Shown here piece by piece: positions 3,399-39,120 of a DNA stretch of 64,000 nt. The stretch's first letter is position 1, and each line of letters starts with the position of its first letter. Made by a program: the position numbers and the translations under genes. The notes below the pieces were generated by a model. It ran no database searches, was not told the DNA's origin, and worked only from the letters and a program-made list of their open reading frames with translations. This DNA comes from a virus, in the IMG/VR virus record IMGVR_UViG_3300045988_105168, positions 32,001 through 96,000 of that record; one strand, written 5' to 3'.

Positions 3399-3410
3399 TT
3401 AAATTCCTCC

Positions 3411-4490
3411 TTAAATAACCTTAAATTTTTCCTTTTTTACTTCTACGAACGAACCACCATTTTGGCTTGTGTACATTTTGTATCTAGTAAATCCACCACC
3501 ATTTTGAGATACGTAGATATATTTGTCAGATACAACCGTAACTGAATTGCTTCCATTTACCGCAGTTGTTCCACTACCGCTCCAATGTTTATTACCAGCC
3601 CAATCATAACAATATGCAAATATACTTGTCGTAGCAACATCCCCAGGTACAAAACCTAAAGCTTCAAATGTTCCAAAGGTATAGGTAACCGCTGTACTAT
3701 CGGTGTCTATACATTGTATTTCAGTACCATTTTTATACAAACGAATTCTATATCCGCCTATTGCTGTAGAGCCAGCTGATGCCGCCGTCCAAGTTGCTTT
3801 AATATTTGCCTTTGGTATTGGTTCACTTTGGTCATAGGTTAATACTGGTGCACCTGGGTTACCTGGAGCGTAGAAGGCCGTCGTAAAACTTGTAACGGCT
3901 GTATACGCCCTACCAGCACTATTAGCCGCGTTTCCTCGTAAATAATATGTTCTATTCGGTGTTAACCCAGTAATAGTACCTGCTTTACTACTAATACCCG
4001 CTACTACAGTACCAAAGTTTGTTAATGATGCATCGATATAACCATCGGATGGAGCTTCACCATTATTGTTAGACACACTAAACGAAGCGTAAACCGACGT
4101 ATCTTTAACACTACTATAACTAATTGCACTCAGTGTTGGTTTAAAAATATACGCAGACATTGTAAAATTACCACCGTGGTTATCTGTACGATTATAAAAT
4201 ACATATCCTGTAAAATATACAGTTATGGTTTTTGAACTTGCTCCGTTACCTATCCATACACTACCACTTGTACTACCAACTTTTGCTGGGAATGCATAAG
4301 TATTCCAAGCAACCGTACCTGGATTGTATACTGTCGTACCGTTAATCTTAACATTTACATTATAAATAGTATAGTAATTGCTACTACTATTACCAGTAGA
4401 ATATAATGCCCATTTCGCATACCCACCATCTTGCCAAACATCTAGTTGTAAATATCTCCCATCATAAGTATTACTATAAAAAGTAGCCAT
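3411..4490 (-). CDS. tail fibre-associated structural protein with FN3-like segments
   Basis: 359 aa, Ser/Thr/Gly/Asn-rich beta-type sequence with an FN3-like stretch (PGAPVLTYDQS...ATWTAASAGSTAIGGYRIRLYKNG). Sits between the fibre cassettes and the holin. Confidence 0.45.
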   Translation of the reverse strand: MATFYSNTYDGRYLQLDVWQDGGYAKWALYSTGNSSSNYYTIYNVNVKINGTTVYNPGTVAWNTYAFPAKVGSTSGSVWIGNGASSKTITVYFTGYVFYNRTDNHGGNFTMSAYIFKPTLSAISYSSVKDTSVYASFSVSNNNGEAPSDGYIDASLTNFGTVVAGISSKAGTITGLTPNRTYYLRGNAANSAGRAYTAVTSFTTAFYAPGNPGAPVLTYDQSEPIPKANIKATWTAASAGSTAIGGYRIRLYKNGTEIQCIDTDSTAVTYTFGTFEALGFVPGDVATTSIFAYCYDWAGNKHWSGSGTTAVNGSNSVTVVSDKYIYVSQNGGGFTRYKMYTSQNGGSFVEVKKEKFKVI

Positions 4491-4501
4491 CTACTCACCT
4501 C

Positions 4502-4900
4502 CTAACTTGCAGTATTTATCCATATAATTGTCTTTCCGCTTTGTGCTGATGGTTGTGTTGAACTAACTTTGATAATTGTATTCCCATCGCTCATTACACC
4601 ATAAGCATTTACGGCTTCTTTTACTCTTGCTGGCGTCATTACTTTATTTGTGATTGCACCAGCAGTTGCTTCGGCAGTTGTTGCAGCTGCTAATGATAAT
4701 GTTCCATCACTAAGATTTAAACCGTTACCAGTAGTAACTTTGATATGACCAAAAGCCGATGTTGTTGCTACACCAAAATCAGTTGTTGTTGACGCGTGAT
4801 TTTTTGTAGCCTTATTTGTATAAAGGTCTGTGAAATTTTCATTTAAAATATTTCTAAACACAGCACCTGATATACCATTATTTAAGGTTTGTTGTGCCAT
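4502..4900 (-). CDS. short tail fibre protein
   Basis: 132 aa. Contains a fibre-type motif AEATAGAITNKVMTPARVKEAV. Strong SD AAGGAGG upstream. Confidence 0.45.
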   Translation of the reverse strand: MAQQTLNNGISGAVFRNILNENFTDLYTNKATKNHASTTTDFGVATTSAFGHIKVTTGNGLNLSDGTLSLAAATTAEATAGAITNKVMTPARVKEAVNAYGVMSDGNTIIKVSSTQPSAQSGKTIIWINTAS

Positions 4901-4926
4901 ATAATCTCCTCCTTTTTAATTTAACT

Positions 4927-5445
4927 TTATGCGGTTCTTTTCCAAACAAATACATCAACTGTTGCTATATTATGCGAATGTGCGCCTCCGCCACCCGTAT
5001 TTTGATTGGTGGCTGTAGCCGCTCTTGTAGATACGTTATCATAAGGCGCACCAGTACTTGACCTTGACCAACCTAATTCAATACATCCAGTACTCCCATA
5101 AGTGGTTGAAACAACTATTGTATCCCCTGAACTACCGCTGTCATTATGCCTTAAACCGTGATGCTTGTGTGAATTTTGGGTATGGGTATGACTTGGCATT
5201 TGAGATACTGTTAATGTGTGTCCTTGAGTTCCCCATCCAACATAGTCTGTTTTACCAATACTAGATTGAGCCGCATATAAATATCCACCATATAATTGCT
5301 CCCAAGTACCACCAAAGTAGGTTGATGGATTTGTTTTATTAATTGACAAATAAATTGAACCAACTGGATATAAATCTTTTATATCAAGTGGTGTTATTGA
5401 TACATTTTTATTATTGTTATATATTCTTCCATATGGTTTTGCCAT
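4927..5445 (-). CDS. tail-collar (MdpB-like) fibre-tip protein, cassette 4
   Basis: PVGSIYLS...NPSTYFGGTWEQ, HTLTVSQMPSHTH, GGGGAHSHN and C-terminal VWKRTA. Paralogous to 6047-6625 and 6655-7217. No SD upstream of the ATG. Confidence 0.65.
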   Translation of the reverse strand: MAKPYGRIYNNNKNVSITPLDIKDLYPVGSIYLSINKTNPSTYFGGTWEQLYGGYLYAAQSSIGKTDYVGWGTQGHTLTVSQMPSHTHTQNSHKHHGLRHNDSGSSGDTIVVSTTYGSTGCIELGWSRSSTGAPYDNVSTRAATATNQNTGGGGAHSHNIATVDVFVWKRTA

Positions 5446-5466
5446 AAATTTCGGTTTATCGTGATA

Positions 5467-6016
5467 TTAAGCCGTACGTCTCCATACATAATTACTTGTG
5501 TTATAGACATCTATTTTAAAAGCCTTTAAACCAATACTATCTAATGTTCGCCCTGTTGCACTCCAAGATTGTAAATACACTGTAACTGGAGTAGATGTTA
5601 CAATTACATCAACGACCTGTCCACTATATTTGTTACCATCACTACAATGAACTGATTGTCTAGTATAAGCACCTCGTGAAGAAAGTTGTAATGTAAAACC
5701 TGTGCCACTACCATAACCAGAAGCAGAACCAATAAGTAACCATCTACCTTGTGGTAATGTAATAGACGCATTACTTATCCAAGTCGCTCTTGCTTCATCA
5801 GTTAACACCAACCCATTTACTTCCAATGTCTCATCTATTTGAGACCATTCTCCTCCAAATAAAGTTCTAGGGTTGACATTATTAGTACTGATATATATAG
5901 AGCCTGTAGGCTGTATACTATCACTTAATAACCTGCCCCCCCCCCTCACAATAGATACTCTTGTCAGAGATTAGGACAGGCAAATCTTTTACTTTTACTT
6001 TTCCATAATTCGCCAT
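5467..6016 (-). CDS. fibre-tip protein, cassette 3, interrupted by a frame offset at a G10 tract
   Basis: ATG 6016 gives MANYGKVKVKDLPVLISDKSIYCE, then the G10 run. The body RLLSDSIQPTGSIYISTNNVNPRTLFGGEWSQ...VWRRTA is open to 5467 in the frame reached with G9. The track shows only the GTG-started body (5467-5949). Confidence 0.6.
5936..5945 (-). repeat. homopolymeric G10 tract (C10 on the plus strand) inside cassette 3
   Basis: Counted directly: c5936-c5945. Confidence 0.95.
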
Positions 6017-6046
6017 AAAAATTTTATAGTTAATTAATCTTTACTT

Positions 6047-6625
6047 TTAAGCTGTACGTTTCCAAATGTAAACTACTAAGTACGGCATTAAATTGTTATG
6101 ATTACCACCACCACCAGTACTATTTGTAGTTCCATCGTGTTGGTGGGCTGATTTATTATTACCCGCATATGTCAACCACTCATTTAATCTATAATTTGTA
6201 GACCACCCCATACCACTATTGCCTATGAAGTCATTATTACTAGCGGCGCCTGCGCCAGCAGAATAATAAGCTATTTCGTGTCTGTGATGGCCACCAACAT
6301 TTGTAAGAAAATAATGTGTATGACTGGGCATTTCTGAAGTTGTTATTTTATGTGTAACCTCACCACCCATATTACCAGCATAAGCTACAAAGCTCCCTGC
6401 GTTAACAGTACCACACCAGTTGTCATTATTTGCCACAATAGTTCCTTCACCAACCAAAGTACGACCCTGAGCTATTTTTATCCAAGTACCACCAAAGTAA
6501 GTTGATGGATTTGTAGAATTAACACTAATATATACAGACCCGATAGGCCATACATCATAAGTATCAATCCCCATTATAGAAACGTTCTTTCCTTTTTGAT
6601 AAAGTCGACCATAAGGTTTTGCCAT
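6047..6625 (-). CDS. tail-collar (MdpB-like) fibre-tip protein, cassette 2
   Basis: PIGSVYISVNSTNPSTYFGGTW, HKITTSEMPSHTHY, GGGGNHNNLMPYLVVYIWKRTA. No SD upstream. Confidence 0.65.
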   Translation of the reverse strand: MAKPYGRLYQKGKNVSIMGIDTYDVWPIGSVYISVNSTNPSTYFGGTWIKIAQGRTLVGEGTIVANNDNWCGTVNAGSFVAYAGNMGGEVTHKITTSEMPSHTHYFLTNVGGHHRHEIAYYSAGAGAASNNDFIGNSGMGWSTNYRLNEWLTYAGNNKSAHQHDGTTNSTGGGGNHNNLMPYLVVYIWKRTA

Positions 6626-6654
6626 AATACTCGACGCTTCGGTTTATTATTTAT

Positions 6655-7217
6655 TTAAGCTGTTCTTTGCCATATATAAACCGCCATATAAGGCATTACG
6701 TTATTATGCCATCCTCCGCCACCTGTGTTTTGCATTGCAATACTGTTACTCCATCCTTTTGTATCCATACTGTAAAGGTAATCCCAGTTATTATAGCTTA
6801 ATGTAGCTAACGCATCTGAATTGTTGTTATAAGGATTATAACCATTACTATTCTTATTTAATGCTGTAACTTTATGGCAATGAGCTGGCATCTCACTTGT
6901 TGTTAGGTAATGATTATATTGGCCGCCCATTTCACCAGCCCAGAAACTATAATTATTATTATTAAGTGTTCCACACCAATTAGTGTTATTATCTGAAGGG
7001 TCTCCAACACCAACTAAGCATCTACCTTGACAAATCTGTGTCCAAGTGCCCCCAAATAAATCTTTAGGGTTTGTGGCGCTCATTGTTAAATAAATACTAC
7101 CGACAGGATAAACTAAATCAAACAGTTTATCGAGCGTCTTGCCCCCCCCTCATACAGTATTGAACTTGCATTTATAAGGACGGGACTATTTTTTACATAT
7201 GTTTTTCCTTTATTCAT
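6655..7217 (-). CDS. tail-collar (MdpB-like) fibre-tip protein, cassette 1, interrupted by a frame offset at a G8 tract
   Basis: ATG 7217 gives MNKGKTYVKNSPVLINASSILYE, then the G8 run. The body frame is open from the tract: GGGKTLDKLFDLVYPVGSIYLTMSATNPKDLFGGTW...GGGGWHNNVMPYMAVYIWQRTA. The track shows only the part from the internal ATG 7083. Confidence 0.6.
7142..7149 (-). repeat. homopolymeric G8 tract (C8 on the plus strand) inside cassette 1
   Basis: Counted directly: c7142-c7149. Confidence 0.95.
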
Positions 7218-7230
7218 AAGTTAAATCGTA

Positions 7231-7309
7231 AAGATTGTCATACCAAAAAGAGGTATACTAACTATAATATACCTCCTTTCTCTCGAAAGTTAGAAGGCAC
7301 GACAATCTT
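7231..7309 (-). terminator. compound hairpin with an intrinsic-terminator core between the leader ORF and cassette 1
   Basis: Minus strand inner stem GGAGGTATA (7276-7268) / TATACCTC(T) (7257-7249), 10-nt loop, then TTTTT. Outer 14-bp stem AAGATTGTCGTGCC (7309-7296) / GGTATGACAATCTT (7244-7231), allowing G-U pairs. Confidence 0.55.
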
Positions 7310-7349
7310 AGCGATGTGTCGCCCCCCCCCTAATCATATAATTTCTCAT
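7308..7349 (-). promoter_or_regulatory. 13-codon leader ORF carrying a G9 tract
   Basis: AAAAGGAGT SD, then ATG 7349: MRNYMIRGGATHR, stop at 7310-7308 at the foot of the hairpin. This is the only strong SD in the whole 4927-7349 fibre-cassette stretch. Confidence 0.4.
7322..7330 (-). repeat. homopolymeric G9 tract (C9 on the plus strand) inside the leader ORF
   Basis: Counted directly: c7322-c7330. Confidence 0.95.
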
Positions 7350-7371
7350 TAAAAATCACTCCTTTTATTCA

Positions 7372-7728
7372 TTAATATTCACCTGTTTTAACGAAGATTA
7401 GAGCGTTATCTTCTAAATACTTTACACGGTCTGCGATTGAGGTTCCTTTACCGTGTTTTAATGCAACCCAAGAATTTGATAAACGTCCATTTTTAGTACA
7501 TAATTCTACTGAGTCACCAACTGACAAACTTTCAGTACTTTTATTTAAGACATTATTTACTCTTCTTGCATTATCGGGTGGAATTGTAACGTTAACTGTA
7601 CCATCAGAATTAATCTGTGTTACAACCGCTGCAACAAAGGAAGTTATACCATAACTCGCTAAACGAGCATCTACAATGTCCTCAATTACTTTTTTAAATT
7701 CCTCTAATTGTCTTGCATCAAAATTCAC
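7372..7728 (-). CDS. small distal-tail/baseplate module protein
   Basis: 118-aa ORF abutting the 421-aa structural gene. Function inferred from position only. Confidence 0.4.
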   Translation of the reverse strand: MNFDARQLEEFKKVIEDIVDARLASYGITSFVAAVVTQINSDGTVNVTIPPDNARRVNNVLNKSTESLSVGDSVELCTKNGRLSNSWVALKHGKGTSIADRVKYLEDNALIFVKTGEY

Positions 7729-7729
7729 G

Positions 7730-8995
7730 TTACATCACCCCTTCTCCATAAGTATTAAAGTTTGCAATATTTGAACAGCTGATTGACATTTGGCATTGGT
7801 CTCCAATAGTATAAGAGATTGATTGAATTAAAAAACGTTCTCTTTGAATGTCATAGTATTGGTCTGTTATTGTAATTAAATTGTTTACAAATAATAATGG
7901 ATTGAATGATACATTGACACTCATAGTTGTTTTTAAAATACCAAATTTTCTTAATTCATAGTCCGCACGTTGTTGTGCTAAATCATCACTATAAATACTG
8001 CTGTCATTGATATATTCAATACGACGTCCAATTCTTTGCACGCACAATGGCGATGCTGGATTATTATTTTTAGCCATAGCCGAAAAGATTTCATTATTTA
8101 TATTATCCCCAACTACGTGTACTTCGTTTACTGCGTTTTCAAAATCATAATTGGCTGTCGCATTATAATAATCTCTTTCTGTATCTTCATAATCCCATAA
8201 TGAAGCCTTTTGAACGTCCAATGTTGTTTCGTTAATATTAATAAAACACAAGTTCCCTTGTGAGTTATAATACACTTCTGCATTTAAAATTGTACCGATT
8301 TCTAAAAGCATTTCTCCCAAAGTGCTTCCTGCGTCCTTTGACAAAGTATAAGGCATCTTTAATCCTGTGAACGCACGGTCATAAATGATTGGTTTTAAAT
8401 CTATTGGGGCACCAGAACCATTATCTAAAGTTAAAATACCAATAATTGCTTGCTCAATATCTGAGTTAACAGGTATTTCATATGTAGCCTCTAAAGTACC
8501 AGCTTTCCCCTCAAGCACCGCGAACTTATCAACAAGCGTCAAAGACACTTGCTTGTCTGAGTCTTGGTGACTTGCCGAAGGGTTCCCTAAAACATAAATT
8601 CCACGTGGGAACCAATATACTTGACCGTCGAATTCTAGCCCGACGTCAAATCTAAATCTGTTATGCACCCAAATTGTATTAATGCTTGGCGTGTATTTGC
8701 CATCTATATTAATTAAATTTATATTTACACTTTTTCTTTGTCCACTCTGATAATTCTCTGTAAAGTTACCAGAATTAATAATAATATCCTCTTGAGGAAT
8801 TTCATAGTTTATTGTTTCGTCTGGGTTAAGAACAAATAATCTAAAGCGTGGTTTATATACTGGACGCTTTAAAACATCTGTTAAATAACTCATACTAACA
8901 CTAGAACTATCAACTAAACGAAGGACTTCGCCATATTGACTCCATAAAGTTGAAGTAGATGTATCGGCTAAAGCCCTTGTATCGTAAGTCGCCAT
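7730..8995 (-). CDS. distal-tail/baseplate structural protein
   Basis: 421-aa ORF whose start overlaps the stop of the upstream gene. Third gene after the tape measure. No motif recognised. Confidence 0.45.
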   Translation of the reverse strand: MATYDTRALADTSTSTLWSQYGEVLRLVDSSSVSMSYLTDVLKRPVYKPRFRLFVLNPDETINYEIPQEDIIINSGNFTENYQSGQRKSVNINLINIDGKYTPSINTIWVHNRFRFDVGLEFDGQVYWFPRGIYVLGNPSASHQDSDKQVSLTLVDKFAVLEGKAGTLEATYEIPVNSDIEQAIIGILTLDNGSGAPIDLKPIIYDRAFTGLKMPYTLSKDAGSTLGEMLLEIGTILNAEVYYNSQGNLCFININETTLDVQKASLWDYEDTERDYYNATANYDFENAVNEVHVVGDNINNEIFSAMAKNNNPASPLCVQRIGRRIEYINDSSIYSDDLAQQRADYELRKFGILKTTMSVNVSFNPLLFVNNLITITDQYYDIQRERFLIQSISYTIGDQCQMSISCSNIANFNTYGEGVM

Positions 8996-9843
8996 TATCC
9001 TCCAATAATAGTAATGTTGTCGATGTCTTCAACTTCTACCCAACTAAATGTAATAGTATTAATTTGCTCTCTAGTCACATCGTCTGTTTGTGATGATGTG
9101 CCTGTAACCATTACTAACATCGCATTACCTTTTCTATCTTTTAATAACTTCATATTACCATCCGCACAGAATTCATTCCACTCGTCTAACATTGTATTAG
9201 GTTCAATATATTCAACTAAACTGCTAGTAGTCTTTTGAACGTTACCTAATAAACAAGTTAATGAACCTGTTGAATAGTTTAGTTTTCCAGAGGATACTTT
9301 AGGAAATCGTGTAAGATTGTTATAAGTAGTGTTGTTAAGAGTTTGCGTCCTAGCAGCACTTGAAATGTTTAAATTAAACTTCCATATGTCACCTGTTGTA
9401 TAATATAAGCCTTTTTCGCTTGTACTTGGAATAATATCTATTAAAGACCAATCCCACCAACAAGTTGAAACATCATTTGAAACTACGGCTTCAGAAATTG
9501 CCGACTCGTCTTCTTTAAAAATATAATATTTATATGTTTTGTTATTTGTAACACCATAGTCGGTCATTGATAAACCACCATCACCAAGTCTAGCAACATA
9601 TACTAATTGGTTAGTATCTTTGACCTCTCTATAAATAGAGAAATTATACCCTAAAGCAACATCGGCAACTCCTCCAGAAGTTGTTGTAGCATCGTCAAAT
9701 GTTACAAGAAATCTCGAATAGTTATTTAATACTGGTACGTACTTCGCAGCATTAAAAATATTCGCGTTCGTAGATGAACTTTCTTCTAAATGAAAGAAGT
9801 CTAATTTTACGTTATTATGCACTGTTAACCCTGTTAATAACAT
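8995..9843 (-). CDS. distal-tail structural protein
   Basis: 282-aa ORF, second gene after the tape measure, tightly packed. Confidence 0.45.
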   Translation of the reverse strand: MLLTGLTVHNNVKLDFFHLEESSSTNANIFNAAKYVPVLNNYSRFLVTFDDATTTSGGVADVALGYNFSIYREVKDTNQLVYVARLGDGGLSMTDYGVTNNKTYKYYIFKEDESAISEAVVSNDVSTCWWDWSLIDIIPSTSEKGLYYTTGDIWKFNLNISSAARTQTLNNTTYNNLTRFPKVSSGKLNYSTGSLTCLLGNVQKTTSSLVEYIEPNTMLDEWNEFCADGNMKLLKDRKGNAMLVMVTGTSSQTDDVTREQINTITFSWVEVEDIDNITIIGG

Positions 9844-9858
9844 ATTTTATCCTCCTTT

Positions 9859-12024
9859 TTATGTTGTAGGGAATATCTCTTCTATTTTAATTCCCGTATT
9901 TGTTATTTGAACTTTCCACCAGTGATTACATACACGTTCAAGTGAAGTTCCACCTTCTACCCAAGTATATGTGTCTGTCCAAGTCGCTGTATCATCCCAA
10001 ATATAGTCATTATTAATTTGGGCAATGTTTGCTGATGATAATACAAACACTTGAGATGTGTTGGTATAAAATGGAAGTTCTAAACTAATATCTGGATTTT
10101 GCACAAATATTAATTTATTTTTATCTATTTTGATTGTAAACTCGCCCTCACTATTTGCATCATCGGTTTCTGTTGTGATTAAATTTACAACTTCTTGATA
10201 TACACCGTTTTGGTCGTAGAAAAAGTTCCCATCTGGACTAAATTGCAGTGTAATATTAAAATCATCTGGTAGTACACAAAGTCCGTCTGGTGTTGACCAA
10301 GTTGCTGTATAACCGTGTGTATATAATGAGTTTACTGTATTGTATGGTGTATTATATAAGTATTGAAATCCTGTATTATTATAAATATTTGATAATACTC
10401 GATATGTGTCACCTGGCATTGGTGTATATGTAAAAGGATAGTCTGCAAGCATTGTTCCTACACCAGTTGTTGCGTTATATGAATTAATAACACCCGTGTA
10501 TCTTGTGCCGATTGTACGATATGGCTCAACTGTAGCTATATCTGCACCTTTAGCAATTTGAAAATTAAAAGTGGAATTAGTAAAAACAGTACCAATAGCT
10601 TGACTATTAATAAAAACTTGTAGATATAATTCAGTATCTTCTGTTAAAGTAAAATTTTGATTATATGACAAATTATATCTAGTGTTGTCACTAGCAGCTG
10701 TTATATAGGTTGTTGTTTTGCTAGAATCCTTTATATAAACCGCAAAACCAGCATTGGATGTATCTGGAAATGAAAAGCCACCACTTAATAATTGACTATA
10801 AGAATATGTGCCAGCAGCATATGTCCCCAATACAAAGCCCAAAATTTCTCCACTACTTGTTGTTGTCCCGTTAAGAGACATAGAATTTAAATTAAGCGTT
10901 CTGTTAAGACCTAAAGCTAAAGTCAATGTTTGTGTTGGAAGTAATATTAAATTTTTACCTTCAACATTAGCAGTAATTTGTACTTGGTCACCATTACCTA
11001 AGGTTTGATTGTCTTCAAATACAGCCTGAGTTAATGAATTAGCACCATCTTGAATTGTACCACTTGTCGCTCCTGAACTATTAGATACAGCCTCATTTTC
11101 TACTGGTGTTACCCACGAAACTTTAACTGCATTGTTCTTATCATCAAATGACGCTAATGGTTGTTGTAAATATTCTACGATGTCGTAAGATACAGTAAAT
11201 TCATACATATCTGTTGTAGATATAATACCCATATCATTTTCTACAGTCATTTGTATTAAATATTTATTTCCTGTTCTAAAACTGTCGTATGTATATGATA
11301 AATTAGCAGAATAAACTTTATCTGACGAAGCCACTAAAGAAATTGTTCCATCGTCGTTTCTTGTATATAAATCAAATTGATGATATACAATAGCAACATT
11401 ATCTGATTGTGTATATGTTCCTTGGAATGTATGATATTTTAATGTTAATGAAGATGGCACGTTACTAATAGCAACCGCAGGAGTTCGCCTTGCATAAACG
11501 ATATAGTCTGGCACGGTTTCAATAAAATCAGAGTAAATCTTATATTGTGTTCCTACAGCAGGTGCTGATGAAAATGCGCTACTAACAACGGCTACACCTG
11601 TATCACTATTATATGATGAAATTGTTTTTGTCTGACTATTGATTGTAATTGCCATACCAGCCTTGATGTTAATATTTGGTTGTAAGTATATAGTTGTTGT
11701 TGTACTTGTCGCCTGTACTAAACCATAAGTAATTAACATATCGGCAGTTGGTTGATATAATCTAACACGCCATTTATAGTTTGTTCCATTACTTAAAGCA
11801 ACAGTTGATGCATTTACTGGAATTTCTAATGTATCACCATTGTATGCATAATTAGTTAATGTAGTTTTTGAGCCAGTATAAATTTCGTTGTTGTCAAAAT
11901 CTACTATTAATAATTGATACGCAGATACATACGAATTAGTTTGAATTTCCATTGTAAACGTATTATCTAAAAGACCATCAATAGACACACCTGATGGTTG
12001 TACATTACGTGGTTGATAAATCAT
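9859..12024 (-). CDS. large distal-tail structural protein
   Basis: About 720-aa Ser/Thr/Asn-rich ORF directly after the tape measure. The likely start is the second ATG (12024), 6 nt after GGAGG. Confidence 0.5.
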   Translation of the reverse strand: MIYQPRNVQPSGVSIDGLLDNTFTMEIQTNSYVSAYQLLIVDFDNNEIYTGSKTTLTNYAYNGDTLEIPVNASTVALSNGTNYKWRVRLYQPTADMLITYGLVQATSTTTTIYLQPNINIKAGMAITINSQTKTISSYNSDTGVAVVSSAFSSAPAVGTQYKIYSDFIETVPDYIVYARRTPAVAISNVPSSLTLKYHTFQGTYTQSDNVAIVYHQFDLYTRNDDGTISLVASSDKVYSANLSYTYDSFRTGNKYLIQMTVENDMGIISTTDMYEFTVSYDIVEYLQQPLASFDDKNNAVKVSWVTPVENEAVSNSSGATSGTIQDGANSLTQAVFEDNQTLGNGDQVQITANVEGKNLILLPTQTLTLALGLNRTLNLNSMSLNGTTTSSGEILGFVLGTYAAGTYSYSQLLSGGFSFPDTSNAGFAVYIKDSSKTTTYITAASDNTRYNLSYNQNFTLTEDTELYLQVFINSQAIGTVFTNSTFNFQIAKGADIATVEPYRTIGTRYTGVINSYNATTGVGTMLADYPFTYTPMPGDTYRVLSNIYNNTGFQYLYNTPYNTVNSLYTHGYTATWSTPDGLCVLPDDFNITLQFSPDGNFFYDQNGVYQEVVNLITTETDDANSEGEFTIKIDKNKLIFVQNPDISLELPFYTNTSQVFVLSSANIAQINNDYIWDDTATWTDTYTWVEGGTSLERVCNHWWKVQITNTGIKIEEIFPTT

Positions 12025-22005: not shown

Positions 22006-22764
22006 TTATTTATTTGCGCCTTCAATTTTATTACGCATTTCTTCCATATCTACTTTTACGTCAGCGTATCTATCGTCTTTAGATAAATCATCCATCCAGT
22101 GTTTAATTACACTGTCATCTTTAAATTTAACCATACCAGACATAGATGCACTTAAATAAATTTCGTAATGGAGTTTAGCATCTACTCTTTGTAGAATTTT
22201 CTCAAACTTTCTTATAGTTAACTCGTATATGTCATTCATCTTTAAAGAAGTAGAAATTAAAACACATATCATTTGTTCTTCTAAAGAACACATTTTTCTT
22301 TTGTTTTGTTGCATTTTATATTGTTCTGCTTTTTCTAAAGCATCTCTGATTTCTTTTTGAATTGTCTCATCAATAGGAGTAATACAATTTTGCTCAAAAA
22401 TAATCTTAGTAATCGCATCAAAATCATCTGCGTTATATTCTACATTATTAATCTTAAAAAATGCTTTGTCATTCTTGTCAACATAAAAATACATTTCAGA
22501 ATTTATATCTATATGTAAAACCATACACAACAACGCTTTTATCATATATACATAAGGCTCTTCATTAACTGCCGAGCAATAATAAAGAAAGCGTAAATAA
22601 GACATACTAATAATGTTAATGTCAGGTATACTATTCTTATCTATCAATAAACAACTTACCAACCAATGAAATTCTATATAGTCTTTCATTGTTGCTGGAT
22701 AAATCTTTAATTCTTTATATGAGATAGGCTCATCAAAATATAATTCTTTAATGTGCTCTAACAT
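22006..22764 (-). CDS. hypothetical head-tail module protein
   Basis: 252-aa ORF, tightly packed. No motif recognised. Confidence 0.5.
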   Translation of the reverse strand: MLEHIKELYFDEPISYKELKIYPATMKDYIEFHWLVSCLLIDKNSIPDINIISMSYLRFLYYCSAVNEEPYVYMIKALLCMVLHIDINSEMYFYVDKNDKAFFKINNVEYNADDFDAITKIIFEQNCITPIDETIQKEIRDALEKAEQYKMQQNKRKMCSLEEQMICVLISTSLKMNDIYELTIRKFEKILQRVDAKLHYEIYLSASMSGMVKFKDDSVIKHWMDDLSKDDRYADVKVDMEEMRNKIEGANK

Positions 22765-30089: not shown

Positions 30090-31691
30090 TTATATTTTTC
30101 CGCCTTTTTCTATATTTGAAGCTTTGGCTCTCGTCTTAGCTCCACTATCTGTTAAGTCGGCGTCATCTTTTGCTGGTCTTCCAGCGCCGTCTGGAGACAT
30201 AGTATTAACGTTAAGCATCATCATTAACTTATCTGTAAATCCTGTTGCTTGCGCCTCTTCTAATTCTCTCTCTAGTTCAATTTTATTTAAACCTAAAGAT
30301 GATGCAATTTTGTTAGGTAAAACAACACCTTTATCAGCATAAGTAAATGCTTCTGTTTGACGTCTACTTCTATCAAACTGGTCATTACATCCGACAAATC
30401 TAAATTTCCATTTAAATTTCTTTGTTCTTCTATTGATGTTATATTCTAAGAAGTCCTCGAATTGTGGATATATAGACTCTGCTAATAGTTCATCTAAATT
30501 TAAAGATAATTGAGTTTCGATGGCGTTTTGATTTTCATCTGTTGAGAAAATAACTTTACCACCACTTAATAAAGAACTTGTAATAGCCATAAAGTTTTTA
30601 TAAGTATCTTTATCTGTATTTTCAAACTCAACACCTTTAATATCTTCTGTTGGTAATGCTAATACTTTGATAGCATTTTCAATACCTTGTGTTGCTAAAC
30701 CAATAAACTTACCTAATACATCTGCATCAATAGCTAATTGATTTGCTACACTTGAAGATTTCTTTTCTTTTAAATATGGAACTGAACTGACTAATAATTT
30801 TCTAGCAGCAGCCATACTTTGGTCAACTTGCAATCTTCTCATTACTGGTACTATTGCCATTTCTGGTAACATTCCACTAAAGAATGGTACTTGTAATGAA
30901 TGTTTTGGGTTAAATTTAAAACACCAAAAGCCATTTTCAGGAGATGTTTGTACCCATTGTGCAAATTTTCCAGTTCTATCATTTAATTTGTTACTTGGTC
31001 TATATTTGTTAGTATCACCATTGAATACTTCAAGATATTTCTTTTTTAACCAATCTGGATAACAATCTAAATCAACCACACCTTGTAAAAAATAATTCAT
31101 ATCTATATCATATAATAGACCGTATTCAAATTTACCAGTAACCTTAGCGTATTTCCAAGGCCATTGTTGTAAAACACTTTTGGTTTCAAATTCTCTAAAG
31201 ATACCATAATATGTTTCTTCCATTAATAAGTTCCATAGCACCTCTTTAAATTGCGCTCTGTAATTAAACTTATCTAAGAAGTCAGCCACTATCTTATAAT
31301 CATTTTTATATTTATTACTCTTATAATCTTCTGGTGTGGCATTTATACAAGTCATCTCTAAATCAAAAGCAGGTAAATTTGCGATATATTCTAAATTACG
31401 CTTATACATTAGACTGCTAAAATAATAAGACTGACTGTATGACACTAATTGACTTTCATTATTAGAAGGATTTTTTAAAGCATCTTCGATACCTTGTCTA
31501 TCAGGTACTATTGTAGATACATTTAAATTTTTCATTAATGTATTTTGTGTCATTGGACTAAATACACCGTCATTATATCCTTTAGCGAACTCTAACACAT
31601 CAAATGCTTTTTGTACCGCTTCTAAAGTTTCAACAACTTCTTCTTCGGTTAGCTTTACTTGTTCGTCTTTCATAATACACCTGCCTTTCAT
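30090..31691 (-). CDS. portal protein
   Basis: 533 aa. Start overlaps the terminase stop (TAATG). Size and position are typical of a portal. Basic/Gly-rich C-tail. Confidence 0.7.
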   Translation of the reverse strand: MKGRCIMKDEQVKLTEEEVVETLEAVQKAFDVLEFAKGYNDGVFSPMTQNTLMKNLNVSTIVPDRQGIEDALKNPSNNESQLVSYSQSYYFSSLMYKRNLEYIANLPAFDLEMTCINATPEDYKSNKYKNDYKIVADFLDKFNYRAQFKEVLWNLLMEETYYGIFREFETKSVLQQWPWKYAKVTGKFEYGLLYDIDMNYFLQGVVDLDCYPDWLKKKYLEVFNGDTNKYRPSNKLNDRTGKFAQWVQTSPENGFWCFKFNPKHSLQVPFFSGMLPEMAIVPVMRRLQVDQSMAAARKLLVSSVPYLKEKKSSSVANQLAIDADVLGKFIGLATQGIENAIKVLALPTEDIKGVEFENTDKDTYKNFMAITSSLLSGGKVIFSTDENQNAIETQLSLNLDELLAESIYPQFEDFLEYNINRRTKKFKWKFRFVGCNDQFDRSRRQTEAFTYADKGVVLPNKIASSLGLNKIELERELEEAQATGFTDKLMMMLNVNTMSPDGAGRPAKDDADLTDSGAKTRAKASNIEKGGKI

Positions 31692-33451
31692 TAATATATA
31701 TAACCTACTAAATATTTTAATGCGTCCACATCGGCACGTCCTATATCGGCTTTACCTTGTTTCTCATATTCAAAAACAACAGATAAACCATACATTAAAG
31801 AAGTGGCGCGGTCACGCTTTGCGGATTTAACTATACGGTCATATAATATTTGACCATTTAATCCGAAATCTCTTTTTATATTACTAAGCTCCTGCATTAA
31901 ATTATCGTGCTCTACGTGCATCACCTGTTCTGCCGCATCATACTTACCACTCTTATATAATTCATCAGTTTCGTTACTATCTACCAATAGTTTTAAACTC
32001 TGGTCTTCAAAACAACTCTTCATATAAGGATAATAAGTGCTATTGAATTCAGCCGTTGCTTGCACACCTCTAATAATAGGTTCAGCATTAGGCAATGTTC
32101 TCATAGTTTCTTCATCGTCATCTTGAATTAAAGGTGGATATTCTTCAATATCTCCTTTTTCATTTCGATAACTCCAAGGCTCTTCTAATAAAGATAAAAG
32201 ACCCTGTCCAGCACTACGAACGTCGATAACCAATTTCTCTGTATTAGGAAATTGAATATGCAATAATTCTCTTAATAATTCCCTTTGTTCTTTTAAACTA
32301 GCCCCGTTTAAAGTTTTGGTATACACAACGTGTTTGTCAAATGTACCATTACTTTTTGGGATAAGTTTAATAACGTGAGTACACGAGTTGTCCGAACCGC
32401 TCTTAGTTGATACGGCAACGTCGTGTGTAATTATGTATGAGTATTGTGTTTTTTTAGGCTGTGATAATTCACATCTATCTAAAACTCTACACTTATTAGT
32501 TAATGAATAAGGATAATAACTATCGTTAGAACTACCAACGAATGTTCCTTCATACTCATACGCAAATTTATCTAAAGACATATCTGGACTTTCTTTTTCT
32601 AGTTCAATTTCTTCCATAGAAAATAGTCCAGCGTCTATACCTACTTGATAATCTAAGCTAGCAACAAAATAATGTTTGTCACCACTTATCATCGAATGAT
32701 AGAAGTTTAAAAACTTTTGATATAAGTCGCAAGTCTTTAACCACGCAGATGAAATATAAATCATTCTACCTTTTTCAATAGGATTTTCTGGGTATCTATC
32801 GTGTAAATCGATAGCGTTTTGTCTTGGAGTTTTAATCATCGGTCTAATAACTTCTGTTAAAGTGTTATCTCTAACAAGTCTGGCCTCGTCCACTAAAACT
32901 AATTGAAAACGCCAACCACGAGCATTATCACCTTTTTGGTTAGTACCTAATGTAATTGCCCTAATTGAACTACCATTTTTTAGTTTAACTATACAGTCAT
33001 CGGTACCAGCCTTAATAGAAGCAATCTCTCTTCGGATATTTTCATTCTTAGATAATTCACCTTCTATTTTTTGTTTAATAACCATACGTGCTTGATTACC
33101 ATTTCCAGATACTATACCAATAGCCATACCTGGATATAAAATAGCCATACATATCATAAATACCGCACATAGCCAAGATTTACCAAGACCACGACAACAA
33201 ATTAACATTGCATTTGGGTATCTTGCCATAGCTCGCATAATTAACCTTTGAAAAGGGAATAAATTTATACCTAATATATCAACCGCAAATTTATCAATAT
33301 AGTATCTATAATAAGATAAGAATTTTGTCCATTCTTCATAATCGATACTCTCCTGATTAATTGGGTCGTAACTTAATGGGTTGTCAGTGTTGTTATTACT
33401 CCAATCTTGTTCTGCTCGTCTTTTTTTACTGAAGTTTTTATATGATGCCAT
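31691..33451 (-). CDS. terL: terminase large subunit
   Basis: 586 aa. Walker A-like CCRGLGKSW, Walker B LVLVDEA, and a C-terminal nuclease-type region with conserved acidic residues. Confidence 0.85.
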   Translation of the reverse strand: MASYKNFSKKRRAEQDWSNNNTDNPLSYDPINQESIDYEEWTKFLSYYRYYIDKFAVDILGINLFPFQRLIMRAMARYPNAMLICCRGLGKSWLCAVFMICMAILYPGMAIGIVSGNGNQARMVIKQKIEGELSKNENIRREIASIKAGTDDCIVKLKNGSSIRAITLGTNQKGDNARGWRFQLVLVDEARLVRDNTLTEVIRPMIKTPRQNAIDLHDRYPENPIEKGRMIYISSAWLKTCDLYQKFLNFYHSMISGDKHYFVASLDYQVGIDAGLFSMEEIELEKESPDMSLDKFAYEYEGTFVGSSNDSYYPYSLTNKCRVLDRCELSQPKKTQYSYIITHDVAVSTKSGSDNSCTHVIKLIPKSNGTFDKHVVYTKTLNGASLKEQRELLRELLHIQFPNTEKLVIDVRSAGQGLLSLLEEPWSYRNEKGDIEEYPPLIQDDDEETMRTLPNAEPIIRGVQATAEFNSTYYPYMKSCFEDQSLKLLVDSNETDELYKSGKYDAAEQVMHVEHDNLMQELSNIKRDFGLNGQILYDRIVKSAKRDRATSLMYGLSVVFEYEKQGKADIGRADVDALKYLVGYIY

Positions 33452-35590: not shown

Positions 35591-36376
35591 TTACGAGGTT
35601 TGGGTTTTCAAACCTCTCTTCTTTTCCCTTGTTTTTCTTAAATTTTCTTGATATGCACACATTGTGCAGTATTTTTTTGGTGAACGTGTTTTTTTAATAA
35701 CTATTCCACATATAGCGCATCTTTTGTATTCTGTAGGCTTTTCGTAAATCATTAATTCGCCTAGTACATTTTCATAATTTGAAATCTCAATCGCCACTTC
35801 GCCATTGTTTTTTGCGAATGGTATATAAATATAATTATGTGATTTAAAATTATCTATTTTATATAACCCTTTATTAAATAATAAATTACACAATCTATAT
35901 CTATCGGCCACTCTGAGTTTGGATAAACCAGCCAACTTCCATAAATCATTATTATTTTCAACAACCATCATAATTTCATTTTTCTTACTATAGAACTGTA
36001 AGTGTCTAACTTTACAAGCCCATTTATAATATACCAAATAAATAAATAACAAATTTCTCGCAAGCTCTTCCTCTATAGCCTCAATAATTTCTAATTCCTC
36101 TTTATATATTTCAACCTTAATACCAGTCACAAACTCATACTCGTTTGCTTTTGATATAATTTTAGAGAATATCATATCTTTATCTCTGTCTGATAAATAT
36201 TCACCACCAGACATAGGTATATTAGACAATACCTCTTTAATCTCAGAATGAGAATAGTTTAGAGATGTTAGATGTCGTACCAAAATACAACGTTCTCGAC
36301 CTTGTGTTTTTACAGTGCTGTATTTCTTATTAGCTATAATCTCTTCTGCATATTTCTTTTCATCGAATACTAACAT
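35591..36376 (-). CDS. hypothetical protein with C-terminal zinc ribbon and basic tail
   Basis: 261 aa, CAICG...CTMC then KTREKKRGLK. Start overlaps the RNA polymerase stop. Confidence 0.5.
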   Translation of the reverse strand: MLVFDEKKYAEEIIANKKYSTVKTQGRERCILVRHLTSLNYSHSEIKEVLSNIPMSGGEYLSDRDKDMIFSKIISKANEYEFVTGIKVEIYKEELEIIEAIEEELARNLLFIYLVYYKWACKVRHLQFYSKKNEIMMVVENNNDLWKLAGLSKLRVADRYRLCNLLFNKGLYKIDNFKSHNYIYIPFAKNNGEVAIEISNYENVLGELMIYEKPTEYKRCAICGIVIKKTRSPKKYCTMCAYQENLRKTREKKRGLKTQTS

Positions 36377-39120
36377 CTCTTTACCTCCTCTAAAGAATAA
36401 TGATGACCTAAATACTCAAATCCATTTTCATCTTCCACAACTACCTGTGATTTGCCATACGGAATAATATCTATAATATCATCACCTATAATATCCCAAA
36501 TACAATCATAAGACCATCCATTACGCTCACATAATACTATTAAGTGGTTAAATAGTTCTTTAAAAGATGTAAATAATTCTAACATCTCATTTTTATACTC
36601 ATCACGATTAGCATATAAGACATTTTTTAAAATCTCATTCATATCGTCATCTTGAATACCCTCATTGTCTACCAACGCCTCAATACCTTTATATTTACGT
36701 TGTGCCTTATACTCTTTATATATTTGTTCTAGTTTTGCCATCTTATCTTCTTCTACTTCTATGTCTTCTGCAAACTCTGGCAATAAACTTACACAATTAG
36801 GTTTGTATTTTATATCAAACTCTACATTCTCTATTTCTTTACATAATAAATTCATAATACAATCTGTTTCTAAAACAGGAGAATACTTACGATATTTTCT
36901 TAATAAATTCATTTCGCCCTCAGTGTGGTCTTTCTTTCGTAATAAAACTTTAATAGGGACTCCAAAATGAGTTAAACTAATACTATTAAAATTCTTCTCA
37001 TAATTCTTATAGTCATTCATAAGCGTATTATATAAATAAATAAAGAAATATGGTTTTTTCTTAACTACCATCGAATTGTATTTATATTTCTCTGCTTTGG
37101 TTATATCATCGTCGTCCTTATTGATATGTACCCAATGCCTCCAAGACTTAGGAAAGTTTGGTGGGGTTGTTCCTTTGATTTTATCAATCTCAGCCCCTTG
37201 TAATTCTCTCAGTAATTTTAATCTTTTCTCAATTTCTTCTTTTTGCTCTACCTGTTTTTCGCCTCTAAACAAAGGTAACATTGCAAGCATACTTGTAGAG
37301 TAGTTTGTAATCTGCCCTACTTTTGTATCAAGTCCTTTAATATCACATCTTACTTGATTTGGTAAAGTTATCTTTTGTGTAGGCACAGCCTCTTTATCAT
37401 ACATAATAGGGAGTTCATCTCTTTTTGCTCCTTTTAAGAAATAAGGATTGTCTGTTGCCATACAAATATCCCCATCAAAATCGGAGTCGGCGTGTTTTAC
37501 AACACTAATATCATAGATGTTATAAATAATACCGCTATATATATATTTATACCATTTACGCATTTCCTCAGTATTAGCAAGTTGTTGTACATTAACTTCA
37601 GAATAATGTGTCAATGGACTTCTTAACAAACAAACCTCTCCAGTAATATTTCTTTCATTCCAGAAGTTACCATAAACATAATTCGCTGGCAATAAACCGT
37701 CTGGACTTAACCCAAGAGCACTTCGACATTGAGCTACTGGGTCACTAATCATAAATGAATAATTACCCTTTACCCAAATACGACCGATTTTTGCTTGGCG
37801 TATACTTTCCTTAATAGAATTATAAATCTTTCTTTGAATAAATCCGTCTTTTAACATTTCAGGATTTTTAATGATAGCTTTTGTAAATACACTACCACAA
37901 GAATTAATAATACTATCAATATTAAGCGCTGGATTTTTTACACCAACATTATATGTTAAAGCATATTCAATATTTCCACTACAAATGTTTTTTATCCATT
38001 CTGTTGTATACGATACCAAACCAGCAATATCTTCTTTGGTTAAATCTAAAACTTGAATATATTGATAATTGGTTAAAACATATTCATCGTCTGCTTCTTT
38101 GTTATAACGGGCTACTCCCCATTTTAAATTATATGCTTTGTGATAACTTAAATATCCTTCCCAAGAAGAATAATATTTCGCCATCTTAAATTGACTCTCA
38201 GATAATAAAACGTCAATATCATCAATATTGTATTCTGTACCGTATCTATCTTTAATAGTTAAAACCCCGTGTTCTTTAGCATATGCTTTAAAATCAAAAG
38301 GAACCAAGTTACCTTTAACAAACGCTGTTCTTACAACAAACGAACAAGGTGTATAATTTAAATGCATATCCTCCGCCCAACATTTTGCCATTTCTGGACT
38401 TATTAAACCTTGACCATCGGCACTATTTAATTTTATATCTTTATAAATTTGTTCTACTGTATTACCATCTTCTGTCTTATTAATCCAGTTTAACTTTTGT
38501 TGAGGGATTACAGTATCAAAATCTTTAATGACACACACTCTTGGTTCTCTTACCCATAATACAGATGAAAAAGATAAAGCATAATAAGCGGATAATTTTG
38601 CTAGATTAATTGTCTTAATCTTTCCGTTAAGACCACACATCAATCTCTCTTGCATATAATCAAATAATTCTTCATTGATAAAAGAAACAGTATTTCTTCT
38701 CATTTGTCCTGAACCAACCATAAACCTAACATAATGTTTACCATTTAAATCAAAACCATTACGTCCCAATTCTCTATATTCTTTTTTTGTGACAACTTTT
38801 ATATTAATAATATCGTCTACAAATAATAAGTCGTCTAATTGTGATTGTAGGTCTTTAATCTGATTTAAACTATCTGGAGTTGTTGGTTGTTTTCTTATTT
38901 CTTTCATTTCTTTACGAATTGATTGAACTTGATTATATAAAGACACGTGGTCTCTATCGTCATTATAATACTCCCTAATTTTAGCGAGTACTAAATTATC
39001 ACCAATAGAAACAACATTCCCGTCTCTTGATGCCTCTTTAAATGAATAATGTGTCATTTTGCCAATCTTGTTTGATGGTATCTTATAGATATAATAAGAA
39101 TTTTGTAAAACCTTTGCCAC
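36370..39120 (-). CDS. single-subunit two-barrel RNA polymerase (YonO / cellular RdRP-like)
   Basis: 916 aa. LLRSPLTHYSEV followed by HADSDFDGDICMATDNPYF, the RxP...DxDGD catalytic signature of double-psi-beta-barrel RNAPs/RdRPs. GTG start 5 nt after AGGAGGG. Confidence 0.7.
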   Translation of the reverse strand: MAKVLQNSYYIYKIPSNKIGKMTHYSFKEASRDGNVVSIGDNLVLAKIREYYNDDRDHVSLYNQVQSIRKEMKEIRKQPTTPDSLNQIKDLQSQLDDLLFVDDIINIKVVTKKEYRELGRNGFDLNGKHYVRFMVGSGQMRRNTVSFINEELFDYMQERLMCGLNGKIKTINLAKLSAYYALSFSSVLWVREPRVCVIKDFDTVIPQQKLNWINKTEDGNTVEQIYKDIKLNSADGQGLISPEMAKCWAEDMHLNYTPCSFVVRTAFVKGNLVPFDFKAYAKEHGVLTIKDRYGTEYNIDDIDVLLSESQFKMAKYYSSWEGYLSYHKAYNLKWGVARYNKEADDEYVLTNYQYIQVLDLTKEDIAGLVSYTTEWIKNICSGNIEYALTYNVGVKNPALNIDSIINSCGSVFTKAIIKNPEMLKDGFIQRKIYNSIKESIRQAKIGRIWVKGNYSFMISDPVAQCRSALGLSPDGLLPANYVYGNFWNERNITGEVCLLRSPLTHYSEVNVQQLANTEEMRKWYKYIYSGIIYNIYDISVVKHADSDFDGDICMATDNPYFLKGAKRDELPIMYDKEAVPTQKITLPNQVRCDIKGLDTKVGQITNYSTSMLAMLPLFRGEKQVEQKEEIEKRLKLLRELQGAEIDKIKGTTPPNFPKSWRHWVHINKDDDDITKAEKYKYNSMVVKKKPYFFIYLYNTLMNDYKNYEKNFNSISLTHFGVPIKVLLRKKDHTEGEMNLLRKYRKYSPVLETDCIMNLLCKEIENVEFDIKYKPNCVSLLPEFAEDIEVEEDKMAKLEQIYKEYKAQRKYKGIEALVDNEGIQDDDMNEILKNVLYANRDEYKNEMLELFTSFKELFNHLIVLCERNGWSYDCIWDIIGDDIIDIIPYGKSQVVVEDENGFEYLGHHYSLEEVKRC

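Follow-up and report, generated by a model that had tools for sequence, protein, structure and literature searches.

A 64-kb window of a virus genome (IMG/VR record IMGVR_UViG_3300045988_105168, positions 32,001 to 96,000; the window is the whole stretch of 64,000 nucleotides that was analysed) carries on its minus strand a tandem array of four paralogous genes for putative tail-fibre tips at positions 4927-7217, here called cassettes A to D, together with an upstream anchor gene, a short leader with a poly-G tract and a nested RNA structure. The window served as the main reference, and all coordinates are window positions unless a contig with an L-number is named; these contigs (L001-L127) are relatives that were compared with the window. 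An earlier note on this DNA had described four consecutive paralogous genes on the same strand in this interval, and coordinates, motifs and domain content agree with that description, with the qualification that all four genes are present while A and C are not intact open reading frames (ORFs) in the window (tracts of 8 G and 10 G, respectively). The locus comprises the following features:

7372-7728, minus strand: anchor gene, 118 amino acids (aa), GTG start, strong Shine-Dalgarno (SD) site
7308-7365, minus strand: leader, SD site AAAGGAGTG at 7357-7365, ATG at 7349, 13-codon ORF MRNYMIRGGATHR, stop at 7310-7308
7225-7315, minus strand: nested RNA structure, helix P1 around hairpin P2
7217-6655, minus strand: cassette A, SD-less ATG at 7217, adaptor MNKGKTYVKNSPVLINASSILYEGGG, poly-G at 7142-7149, Gp10_C tip
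6625-6047, minus strand: cassette B, intact 192-aa Gp10_C tip (MAKPYGRLY...), neither poly-G nor SD site
6016-5467, minus strand: cassette C, SD-less ATG at 6016, adaptor MANYGKVKVKDLPVLISDKSIYCEGGG, poly-G at 5936-5945, different distal domain
5445-4927, minus strand: cassette D, intact 172-aa Gp10_C tip (MAKPYGRIY...), neither poly-G nor SD site

The stop-to-start gaps measure 90 nucleotides (nt) from the leader to A, 29 nt from A to B, 30 nt from B to C and 21 nt from C to D. Cassette D is the conserved final cassette of the array, with cassette #7 of contig L008 as its counterpart.

All four deduced proteins share an N-terminal core (YPVGSIYLTMSATNPKDLFGGTW in A, WPIGSVYISVNSTNPSTYFGGTW in B, QPTGSIYISTNNVNPRTLFGGEW in C, and YPVGSIYLSINKTNPSTYFGGTW in D) and a similar C-terminal end (IWQRTA, IWKRTA, VWRRTA, and VWKRTA, respectively). 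The motifs (T/S)xMP(S/A)HxH and GGGGxHxN, previously taken as tail-collar signatures of three of the four proteins, were indeed found in A, B, and D, while C has the N-terminal core and the WRRTA end in common with the others and a different distal domain. Regarding their starts, B and D begin with MAKPYGR(L/I)Y, and A and C with the adaptors listed above; every motif quoted in the earlier note is present. Pfam assigned all of them to the domain Gp10_C (PF21939) with 61.7 (A), 85.5 (B), 29.2 (C), and 53.5 bits (D), each above the curated gathering threshold of 27 bits, the match in C being confined to the N-terminal core (residues 10-46). With phmmer, B matched the C-terminal domain of T4 gp10 (PDB 2fkk) with an E-value of 7.8e-6. 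The earlier note had suggested structure prediction of the tips; it was run for B only, and a Foldseek search with the AF2 model (predicted local distance difference test score, pLDDT, of 72) again led to T4 gp10, with 2fkk, 5iv5, and 9f4b found at a probability of 1.0 and E-values of 2e-5 to 4e-4. The TM-scores against these three structures reached only 0.33-0.37, low values that a monomer model of a trimeric domain would be expected to give. Matches of the tips in isolated phages obtained via tblastn were annotated as tail fiber, tail collar, or short tail fibre proteins, and the homologues in cultured phages nearly always occur in one copy per genome. In family, fold, the PxGS(I/V)Y..NP..FGGxW core, and the W-x-R strand, the tips resemble the C-terminal domain of T4 gp10 and the tail-collar domain of gp12 (PF21939; 2fkk). 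Unlike T4 gp10, in which this domain is the end of a 600-aa baseplate protein, they are free-standing proteins of 170-190 aa with an adaptor of about 25-35 aa, and they are arrayed.

Runs of at least seven G or C occur only three times in the 64 kb, all of them at this locus, namely at 7322-7330 in the leader (9 G), 7142-7149 in A (8 G), and 5936-5945 in C (10 G). In A and C as found, the adaptor (...EGGG) and the tip body lie in different frames across the tract. A tract of 9 G restores the frame, leading to 187 aa for A and 182 aa for C, while with the other two length classes a stop follows 2 to 12 codons past the tract. Comparison with six gut-metagenome contigs (L001-L006), in which B is identical, revealed 100% identity to the window over 7-12.5 kb except for tract C, which counted 8, 9, 9, 9, 10, and 10 G. 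Tract A and the leader tract are constant in this window lineage and vary between lineages. For instance, the 95% identical relative L127 has 10 G in the leader and 9 G in both A and C, so that all four of its tips are in frame. A second lineage with seven to eight cassettes (L008/L009, L033, L034, L066, L102, L109, and L120) was also found; overall, the related arrays have four to eight cassettes. Contigs L008 and L009 differ by 14 mismatches in 17,263 aligned positions, yet five of their six tracts differ in length. Among these arrays, the in-frame cassette is #1 in L008, #5 in L009, and #3 in L109, and cassettes #5 and #6 are in frame in L120; about one third of all tracts are in frame. In the adaptor of A, the three changes that separate the window from L008 are all synonymous, indicating that it is translated in that frame. 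Judged from these alignments, the tracts are hypermutable and switch the cassettes between in-frame and out-of-frame states. As in phase-variable loci, the tract lies inside a frame and sets it, and its length is polymorphic among otherwise identical genomes. The earlier suggestion that poly-G frame changes decide which tips are made is supported in this form, i.e., via the tracts inside A and C and not via the frame of an upstream ORF.

Sequencing errors are frequent in homopolymers, and none of the seven window-like contigs has A in frame, so that the frame breaks might also be read as assembly errors or pseudogenes and the loss of SD sites as a sign of dying genes. However, independent assemblies concur on the flanks and differ at the tracts alone, A and C are conserved in both halves, and L127 has the two cassettes intact. 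Moreover, tracts recur at the same junction of adaptor and body in many divergent cassettes, the intact cassettes B and D lack SD sites as well, and a decayed array, that of contig L032, has interrupted, unmaintained tracts. We therefore give artefact or decay hardly any credit.

The strength of SD sites was expressed as the energy of the duplex with the anti-SD sequence. While the flanking genes gave -13.1 and -12.2 kcal/mol, the leader at 7349 gave -9.4 kcal/mol, and nearly all other genes ranged from -9 to -17 kcal/mol, the starts of A to D gave 0.0, -2.5, +1.8, and -1.8 kcal/mol, respectively, i.e., no SD site. The lack of an SD site at any of the four starts and the strong SD site of the 13-codon leader as the nearest one had both been noted earlier and were confirmed by these energies. 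That every other gene of this strand block would have an SD site turned out to be true for about 47 of 50 genes (SD-less: 4/4 cassettes vs 3/50 other genes; Fisher p = 1.1e-4). The three exceptions, with starts at 22764, 24604, and 20894 on the minus strand, overlap the preceding stop or lie at most 5 nt from it; they represent ordinary translational coupling, in contrast to the array with its gaps of 21-30 nt. The same check was extended to relatives, covering the window, L127, L008 (seven cassettes), L120, L109, L102, L033, and L032, and every cassette start checked in nine loci ranged between +1.8 and -3.1 kcal/mol, while the genes flanking related arrays always had strong SD sites (-9 to -16 kcal/mol). 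In the two relatives without arrays that were checked (L011, L013), the Gp10_C genes do carry an SD site, so this trait is tied to the poly-G array, and the absence of SD sites appears to be maintained and not an accident. Misassigned starts were considered as well and rejected, since the best in-frame alternatives with an SD site sit 32-63 codons inside the conserved core and the adaptors are under purifying selection.

As a further observation, at 12 of 13 different cassette starts from the window, L008, and L120 a CG dinucleotide (mostly as CGA or CGT) with an A/T run behind it was detected 7-12 nt before the ATG. In the window, it precedes the ATGs at 7217, 6625, and 5445 and is absent from C; it is also absent from a second locus of similar plan described below. 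With a genome CG frequency of 2% and a chance of 0.20 per random 12-mer, the binomial p is 5e-8 if the starts are independent; the motif may reflect common descent of the duplicated cassettes.

The leader ORF begins with MRNYMIRGG..., and tract lengths other than the 9 G found in the window lead to ORFs of 28-30 codons that end inside P2. In helix P1, 7315-7296 pairs with 7244-7225 over 18 pairs, and its 3' arm ends 8 nt before the ATG of cassette A. The enclosed hairpin P2 (7280-7245; 16 bp, -18.4 kcal/mol, z -4.9) resembles a terminator, its 3' side being rich in U. Conservation of the leader and of both helices extends over 11 sequences, with 96.5% of cells paired compared with about 45-53% in slid controls, and one compensatory change from C-G to U-A was detected in the helices. 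The end of the leader differs among relatives: after 13 codons it lies inside the 5' arm of P1 (window, L120), after 28 codons (L066, L102, L109) or 29-30 codons (L127, L008, L009, L034, and L032, where it is fixed) inside P2, and after 45 codons it overlaps the ATG of cassette 1 (L033). In L032 (8363-9110), whose array is decayed or locked, an interruption of the leader tract (GGGGGAGGG) holds the leader in its 29-codon form; the adaptor of cassette 1 can still be recognised, with its ATG changed to ATA, and the one tip left is in frame with 6 G and has no SD site. A search against Rfam gave a sub-threshold chance match only. Taken together, the arrangement is consistent with a device placed before the array that acts by leader-dependent unmasking or anti-termination and in which leader and hairpin would serve as an attenuator. 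A mini-ORF of six codons, MTIFTI (7241-7221, minus strand), was also noticed inside the 3' arm of P1, ending 3 nt before the ATG of A; both the window and L127 have it, but the L008 lineage reads ATA in place of the ATG, and it was discarded as not conserved.

From the SD-less starts, the earlier note had suggested that translation of the cassettes depends on coupling or re-initiation along the chain. In a strict form of this relay, ribosomes would load only at the leader SD site and re-initiate from cassette to cassette, and an out-of-frame cassette or a short leader would silence everything downstream. Several features speak for it, e.g., the lack of a cassette SD site in any lineage, the leader SD site as the only one upstream, and the leader stop that overlaps the cassette-1 ATG in L033. 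Furthermore, cassette 1 is in frame in L127, L008, L033, and L034 (leaders of 29-45 codons) and in L102 (28 codons), and cassettes without a tract always lie behind another cassette at a distance of 9-30 nt. On the other hand, coupling in the usual sense would place the SD-less start within a few nucleotides of the preceding stop, as in the other SD-less genes of this phage (at most 5 nt), while the distances here are 90, 29, 30, and 21 nt, and 9-30 nt in relatives. In addition, in-frame cassettes lie behind out-of-frame ones, namely #5 in L009, #3 in L109, #5 and #6 in L120, and C in L002, L005, and L006, and the association of leader form and cassette-1 state (4/5 vs 1/5) is not significant over 10 lineages. 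The strict relay thus appears unlikely, and the claim is not supported in that form; a looser dependence on upstream translation is possible, especially for A via the leader and the helices.

An equally improbable alternative in our view is that each cassette has its own 5' end, generated by a cassette-specific promoter of a phage polymerase or by RNase processing, leading to leaderless or short-leader mRNAs. A 916-aa ORF at 36370-39120 (minus strand) matches Pfam RdRP (PF05183, E 1e-17), a fold known from single-subunit phage RNA polymerases of the YonO type, and may encode a YonO-like polymerase. Transcription of the late genes, the array among them, may therefore proceed from promoters other than those of sigma-70. 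The sequence TATAAA at -12 to -7 of the C ATG, the stacked duplex of about 34 bp formed by P1 and P2 just upstream of A, which has the shape of an RNase III substrate, and the CG(A/T) plus A/T run before 12 of 13 cassette starts would also suit such 5' ends. Against this, a promoter and terminator scan showed no enrichment of sigma-70-like sites (15 promoter-like sites vs 14.9 expected), although the same scan missed P2, and A, B, and D have no -10-like hexamer at a suitable distance. Common descent can explain the CG motif, which is absent from the SD-less cassettes of the second locus.

Comparison of L127 (4914-6172) with the window (6711-5354) revealed flanks of about 95% identity, while the distal halves of the tips could not be aligned. 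Between these two arrays, the adaptor and N-terminal core segments alone align (87-96%), and the B proteins share 65% identity; on this evidence, the receptor-binding ends have been exchanged between otherwise near-identical phages. Such mosaic distal parts, and also the leader MRNY..GGG, which resembles a truncated adaptor MANY..GGG with the same poly-G, could be reconciled with a silent archive, in which SD-less cassettes would be expressed only once recombined behind the leader SD site by gene conversion of the pilin type or by deletion between tracts. However, no junction of tip and leader was found in roughly 17 contigs examined, the adaptors keep their ATG and are under purifying selection, and the sole surviving tip of L032 is still SD-less and unfused. 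Nor was a recombinase, invertase, or reverse transcriptase domain found among the ORFs scanned, and long flanking repeats are missing, making an archive very unlikely. The direct repeats at the locus (14-73 nt, 61-93% identity) reflect ordinary paralogy. Two known types of switches were rejected as well. An invertible or shufflon-like switch does not match a locus with all cassettes on one strand, where the inverted repeats (the P1 pair and scattered 14-20-nt matches) flank none of them as a crossover pair, and for a diversity-generating retroelement neither a reverse transcriptase among the ORFs scanned nor a pair of template and variable repeats was present.

The genes of the region are all encoded on the minus strand in the order tape-measure protein (1605 aa), 723-aa protein, 282-aa protein, 421-aa protein, anchor, leader, and cassettes A to D. 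The 421-aa protein carries DUF5048, and its PHROG match is a 'tail protein'. Using this neighbouring protein, we identified relatives in which the anchor domain and a single Gp10_C tip form one protein with a good SD site upstream, namely L013 (284 aa), L011 (242 aa), and L016 (433 aa). The anchor of the window is homologous to the N-terminal c. 95 aa of these proteins, with 52-84% identity. L017 has the same N-terminal domain and an unrelated C-terminus, and the module is absent from L007 and L010. Since the anchor is fused to a single tip in relatives, the receptor-binding protein of the window seems to be split into an anchor and interchangeable tips. In the poly-G lineages, the anchor stops after a conserved C-terminal extension of 24 aa (..DRVKYLEDNALIFVKTGEY), which is absent from the fused forms, and the tips have gained adaptors at their N-termini. 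Adaptors with and without poly-G share the start M-x-x-(x)-YG(K/R), so the tract-less cassettes B and D look like permanently in-frame versions. A covalent fusion of anchor and tip in the window was rejected on account of two in-frame stops without bypass signals, and so was a fusion of consecutive cassettes by read-through or frameshifting, since B lies in a different frame and the frame of A, open past the ATG of B, never enters that of B. Altogether, the role of the four proteins as alternative receptor-binding tips proposed before is supported by the Gp10_C domain and its fold, by the position after tail and baseplate genes, and by the anchor fusion in relatives.

Based on these results, we consider it probable that the locus is a split, phase-variable receptor-binding module with SD-less alternative Gp10_C tips. 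In this module, the separate 118-aa anchor (7372-7728) would sit on the tail tip, and the four alternative tips would compete for it non-covalently through their short N-terminal adaptors. The poly-G tract between adaptor and body would gate A and C, each being toggled independently by slipped-strand changes in tract length, so that a phage population would hold a mixture of tip repertoires, while B and D, having no tract, would always be in frame. Initiation at the cassette AUGs would be weak and SD-independent, perhaps aided by ribosomes that finish the preceding ORF 9-30 nt upstream and, in the case of A, perhaps by translation of the leader opening P1 and P2.

Some observations weigh against this split module or parts of it. 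The start regions are not unusually unstructured, with -4.4 to -9.6 kcal/mol for the cassettes vs a mean of -5.5 kcal/mol for other genes, and this ordinary structure gives no positive signature of SD-independent initiation. An in-frame fraction near one third fits drift as well as bet-hedging. All seven contigs of the window lineage combine the 13-codon leader with an out-of-frame A, and the whole array could be silent in this lineage. If RNA polymerase slips on the G runs, the distinction between in-frame and out-of-frame states could be lost in part, and the covariation supporting P1 is a single event. The docking of alternative tips on one anchor is inferred from the architecture, including the anchor extension and the conserved adaptors.

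A more far-reaching version of the module can be put forward only tentatively, and we rate it as doubtful. Here, leader, P1, and P2 would form a phase-variable attenuator that admits ribosomes or polymerase to the SD-less array or shuts them out, and the poly-G tracts of the cassettes would then choose among the tips, resulting in a stochastic switch with two levels. The lack of SD sites would have been selected for obedience to this master switch, and, given a second locus of the same plan in these phages, the whole would be a general device for bet-hedging of host range in human-gut Bacillota phages.

With respect to the phage itself, the large terminase (31691-33451, minus strand) shares 53% identity with its counterpart in Clostridium phage c-st and about 30% with those of SPbeta-like Bacillus phages, and a c-st/SPbeta-like phage of gut Bacillota is the probable assignment. 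The group has genomes of roughly 80-110 kb, mainly from the human gut and other metagenomes. Searches with the regions 3400-9900 and 4900-8000 via megablast and blastn against 50,697 phage records resulted in no match. Regarding the host, two contigs were binned with a metagenome-assembled genome (MAG) of Candidatus Coprovivens and another one with a 'Proteobacteria' MAG; given this conflict, host assignment by binning is unreliable. Beyond cassette D follow a 132-aa gene, a 359-aa gene, a holin-like gene, and a CHAP/LysM endolysin, and after the endolysin an Aminotran_5 (cysteine-desulfurase-like) gene is located at 650-1708 on the minus strand, as taken from the gene annotations of L001 and L003.

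A second phase-variable locus was noticed in L037 (7330-9500), L038, and L035 (8340-11100), which lies in the same genomes as that of L008/L009, about 5 kb beyond window position 1. It harbors an anchor paralogue (54% identical, 120-124 aa long) as well as a leader MFRKMF..GGG that has an SD site and two poly-G tracts; in one combination of frames, the stop of this leader overlaps the SD site of the next cassette. Its tips ((M/L)(A/S)KSIKL...) are unrelated to those of the array. Cassettes following a poly-G leader have an SD site (-10 to -11 kcal/mol), while those directly behind another cassette have none. Tract lengths were 9, 9, 9 in L037 and 8, 8, 7 in L038.

The closest precedent for the array are the poly-G receptor-binding genes of Campylobacter phages. 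Poly-G tracts in such genes were described for Fletchervirus (Sorensen et al. 2021, Cell Rep 35:109214, as cited in PMC12823448 and PMC10877375), where G tracts reportedly change length at high frequency and lead to subpopulations with different receptor-binding proteins. In the literature searched, poly-G in phage receptor-binding genes was cited for Campylobacter phages only. The likeness is one of principle, i.e., homopolymeric G tracts in phage receptor-binding genes toggle proteins. In contrast to Fletchervirus, the host here belongs to the Bacillota and the phage is c-st/SPbeta-like instead of a T4-like Campylobacter phage; the domain family differs too, and Campylobacter was not among the ten most frequent organisms in the tblastn matches of the tips. 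Moreover, the tract lies at the junction of a docking adaptor and a small stand-alone tip, and the locus combines four to eight tandem tips, a split anchor, a poly-G leader with nested helices, and SD-less cassettes.

Receptor-binding proteins made of two parts are known from BppU/BppL of the lactococcal phage TP901-1 and from the anchor-branch depolymerases of Klebsiella phages. Like these, the locus pairs a conserved anchor with separately encoded units that can be exchanged and that bear short docking peptides at their N-termini; the difference is that several tips would compete for one anchor and that the choice would fall to stochastic poly-G changes, the likeness being one of logic, with the docking deduced here. 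With the G segment of Mu (Gin), the C segment of P1 (Cin), and diversity-generating retroelements, the array has in common that one genome yields alternative or diversified receptor-binding ends. Translational coupling involves overlapping stop-start genes, and leaders of the ermC type act by leader-peptide attenuation or unmasking. Similar to these, downstream starts lack SD sites and a short leader with an SD site runs into a structure that abuts the next start. The array differs from them in its long stop-to-start gaps and in a leader frame set by a hypermutable tract, and a dependence on upstream translation is only proposed here.

The phages of this group thus carry four to eight independently toggled tail tips, whose hypervariability is directly visible in public metagenome assemblies. 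The SD-less cassettes amid a genome of strong SD sites are a natural case in which initiation independent of SD sites or dependent on a leader could be tested in Bacillota. If the tips set the host range, one phage genotype would continually yield particles of differing specificity, which would matter for phage-host dynamics in the gut, for predicting hosts from sequence, and for designing phages with a switchable host range.

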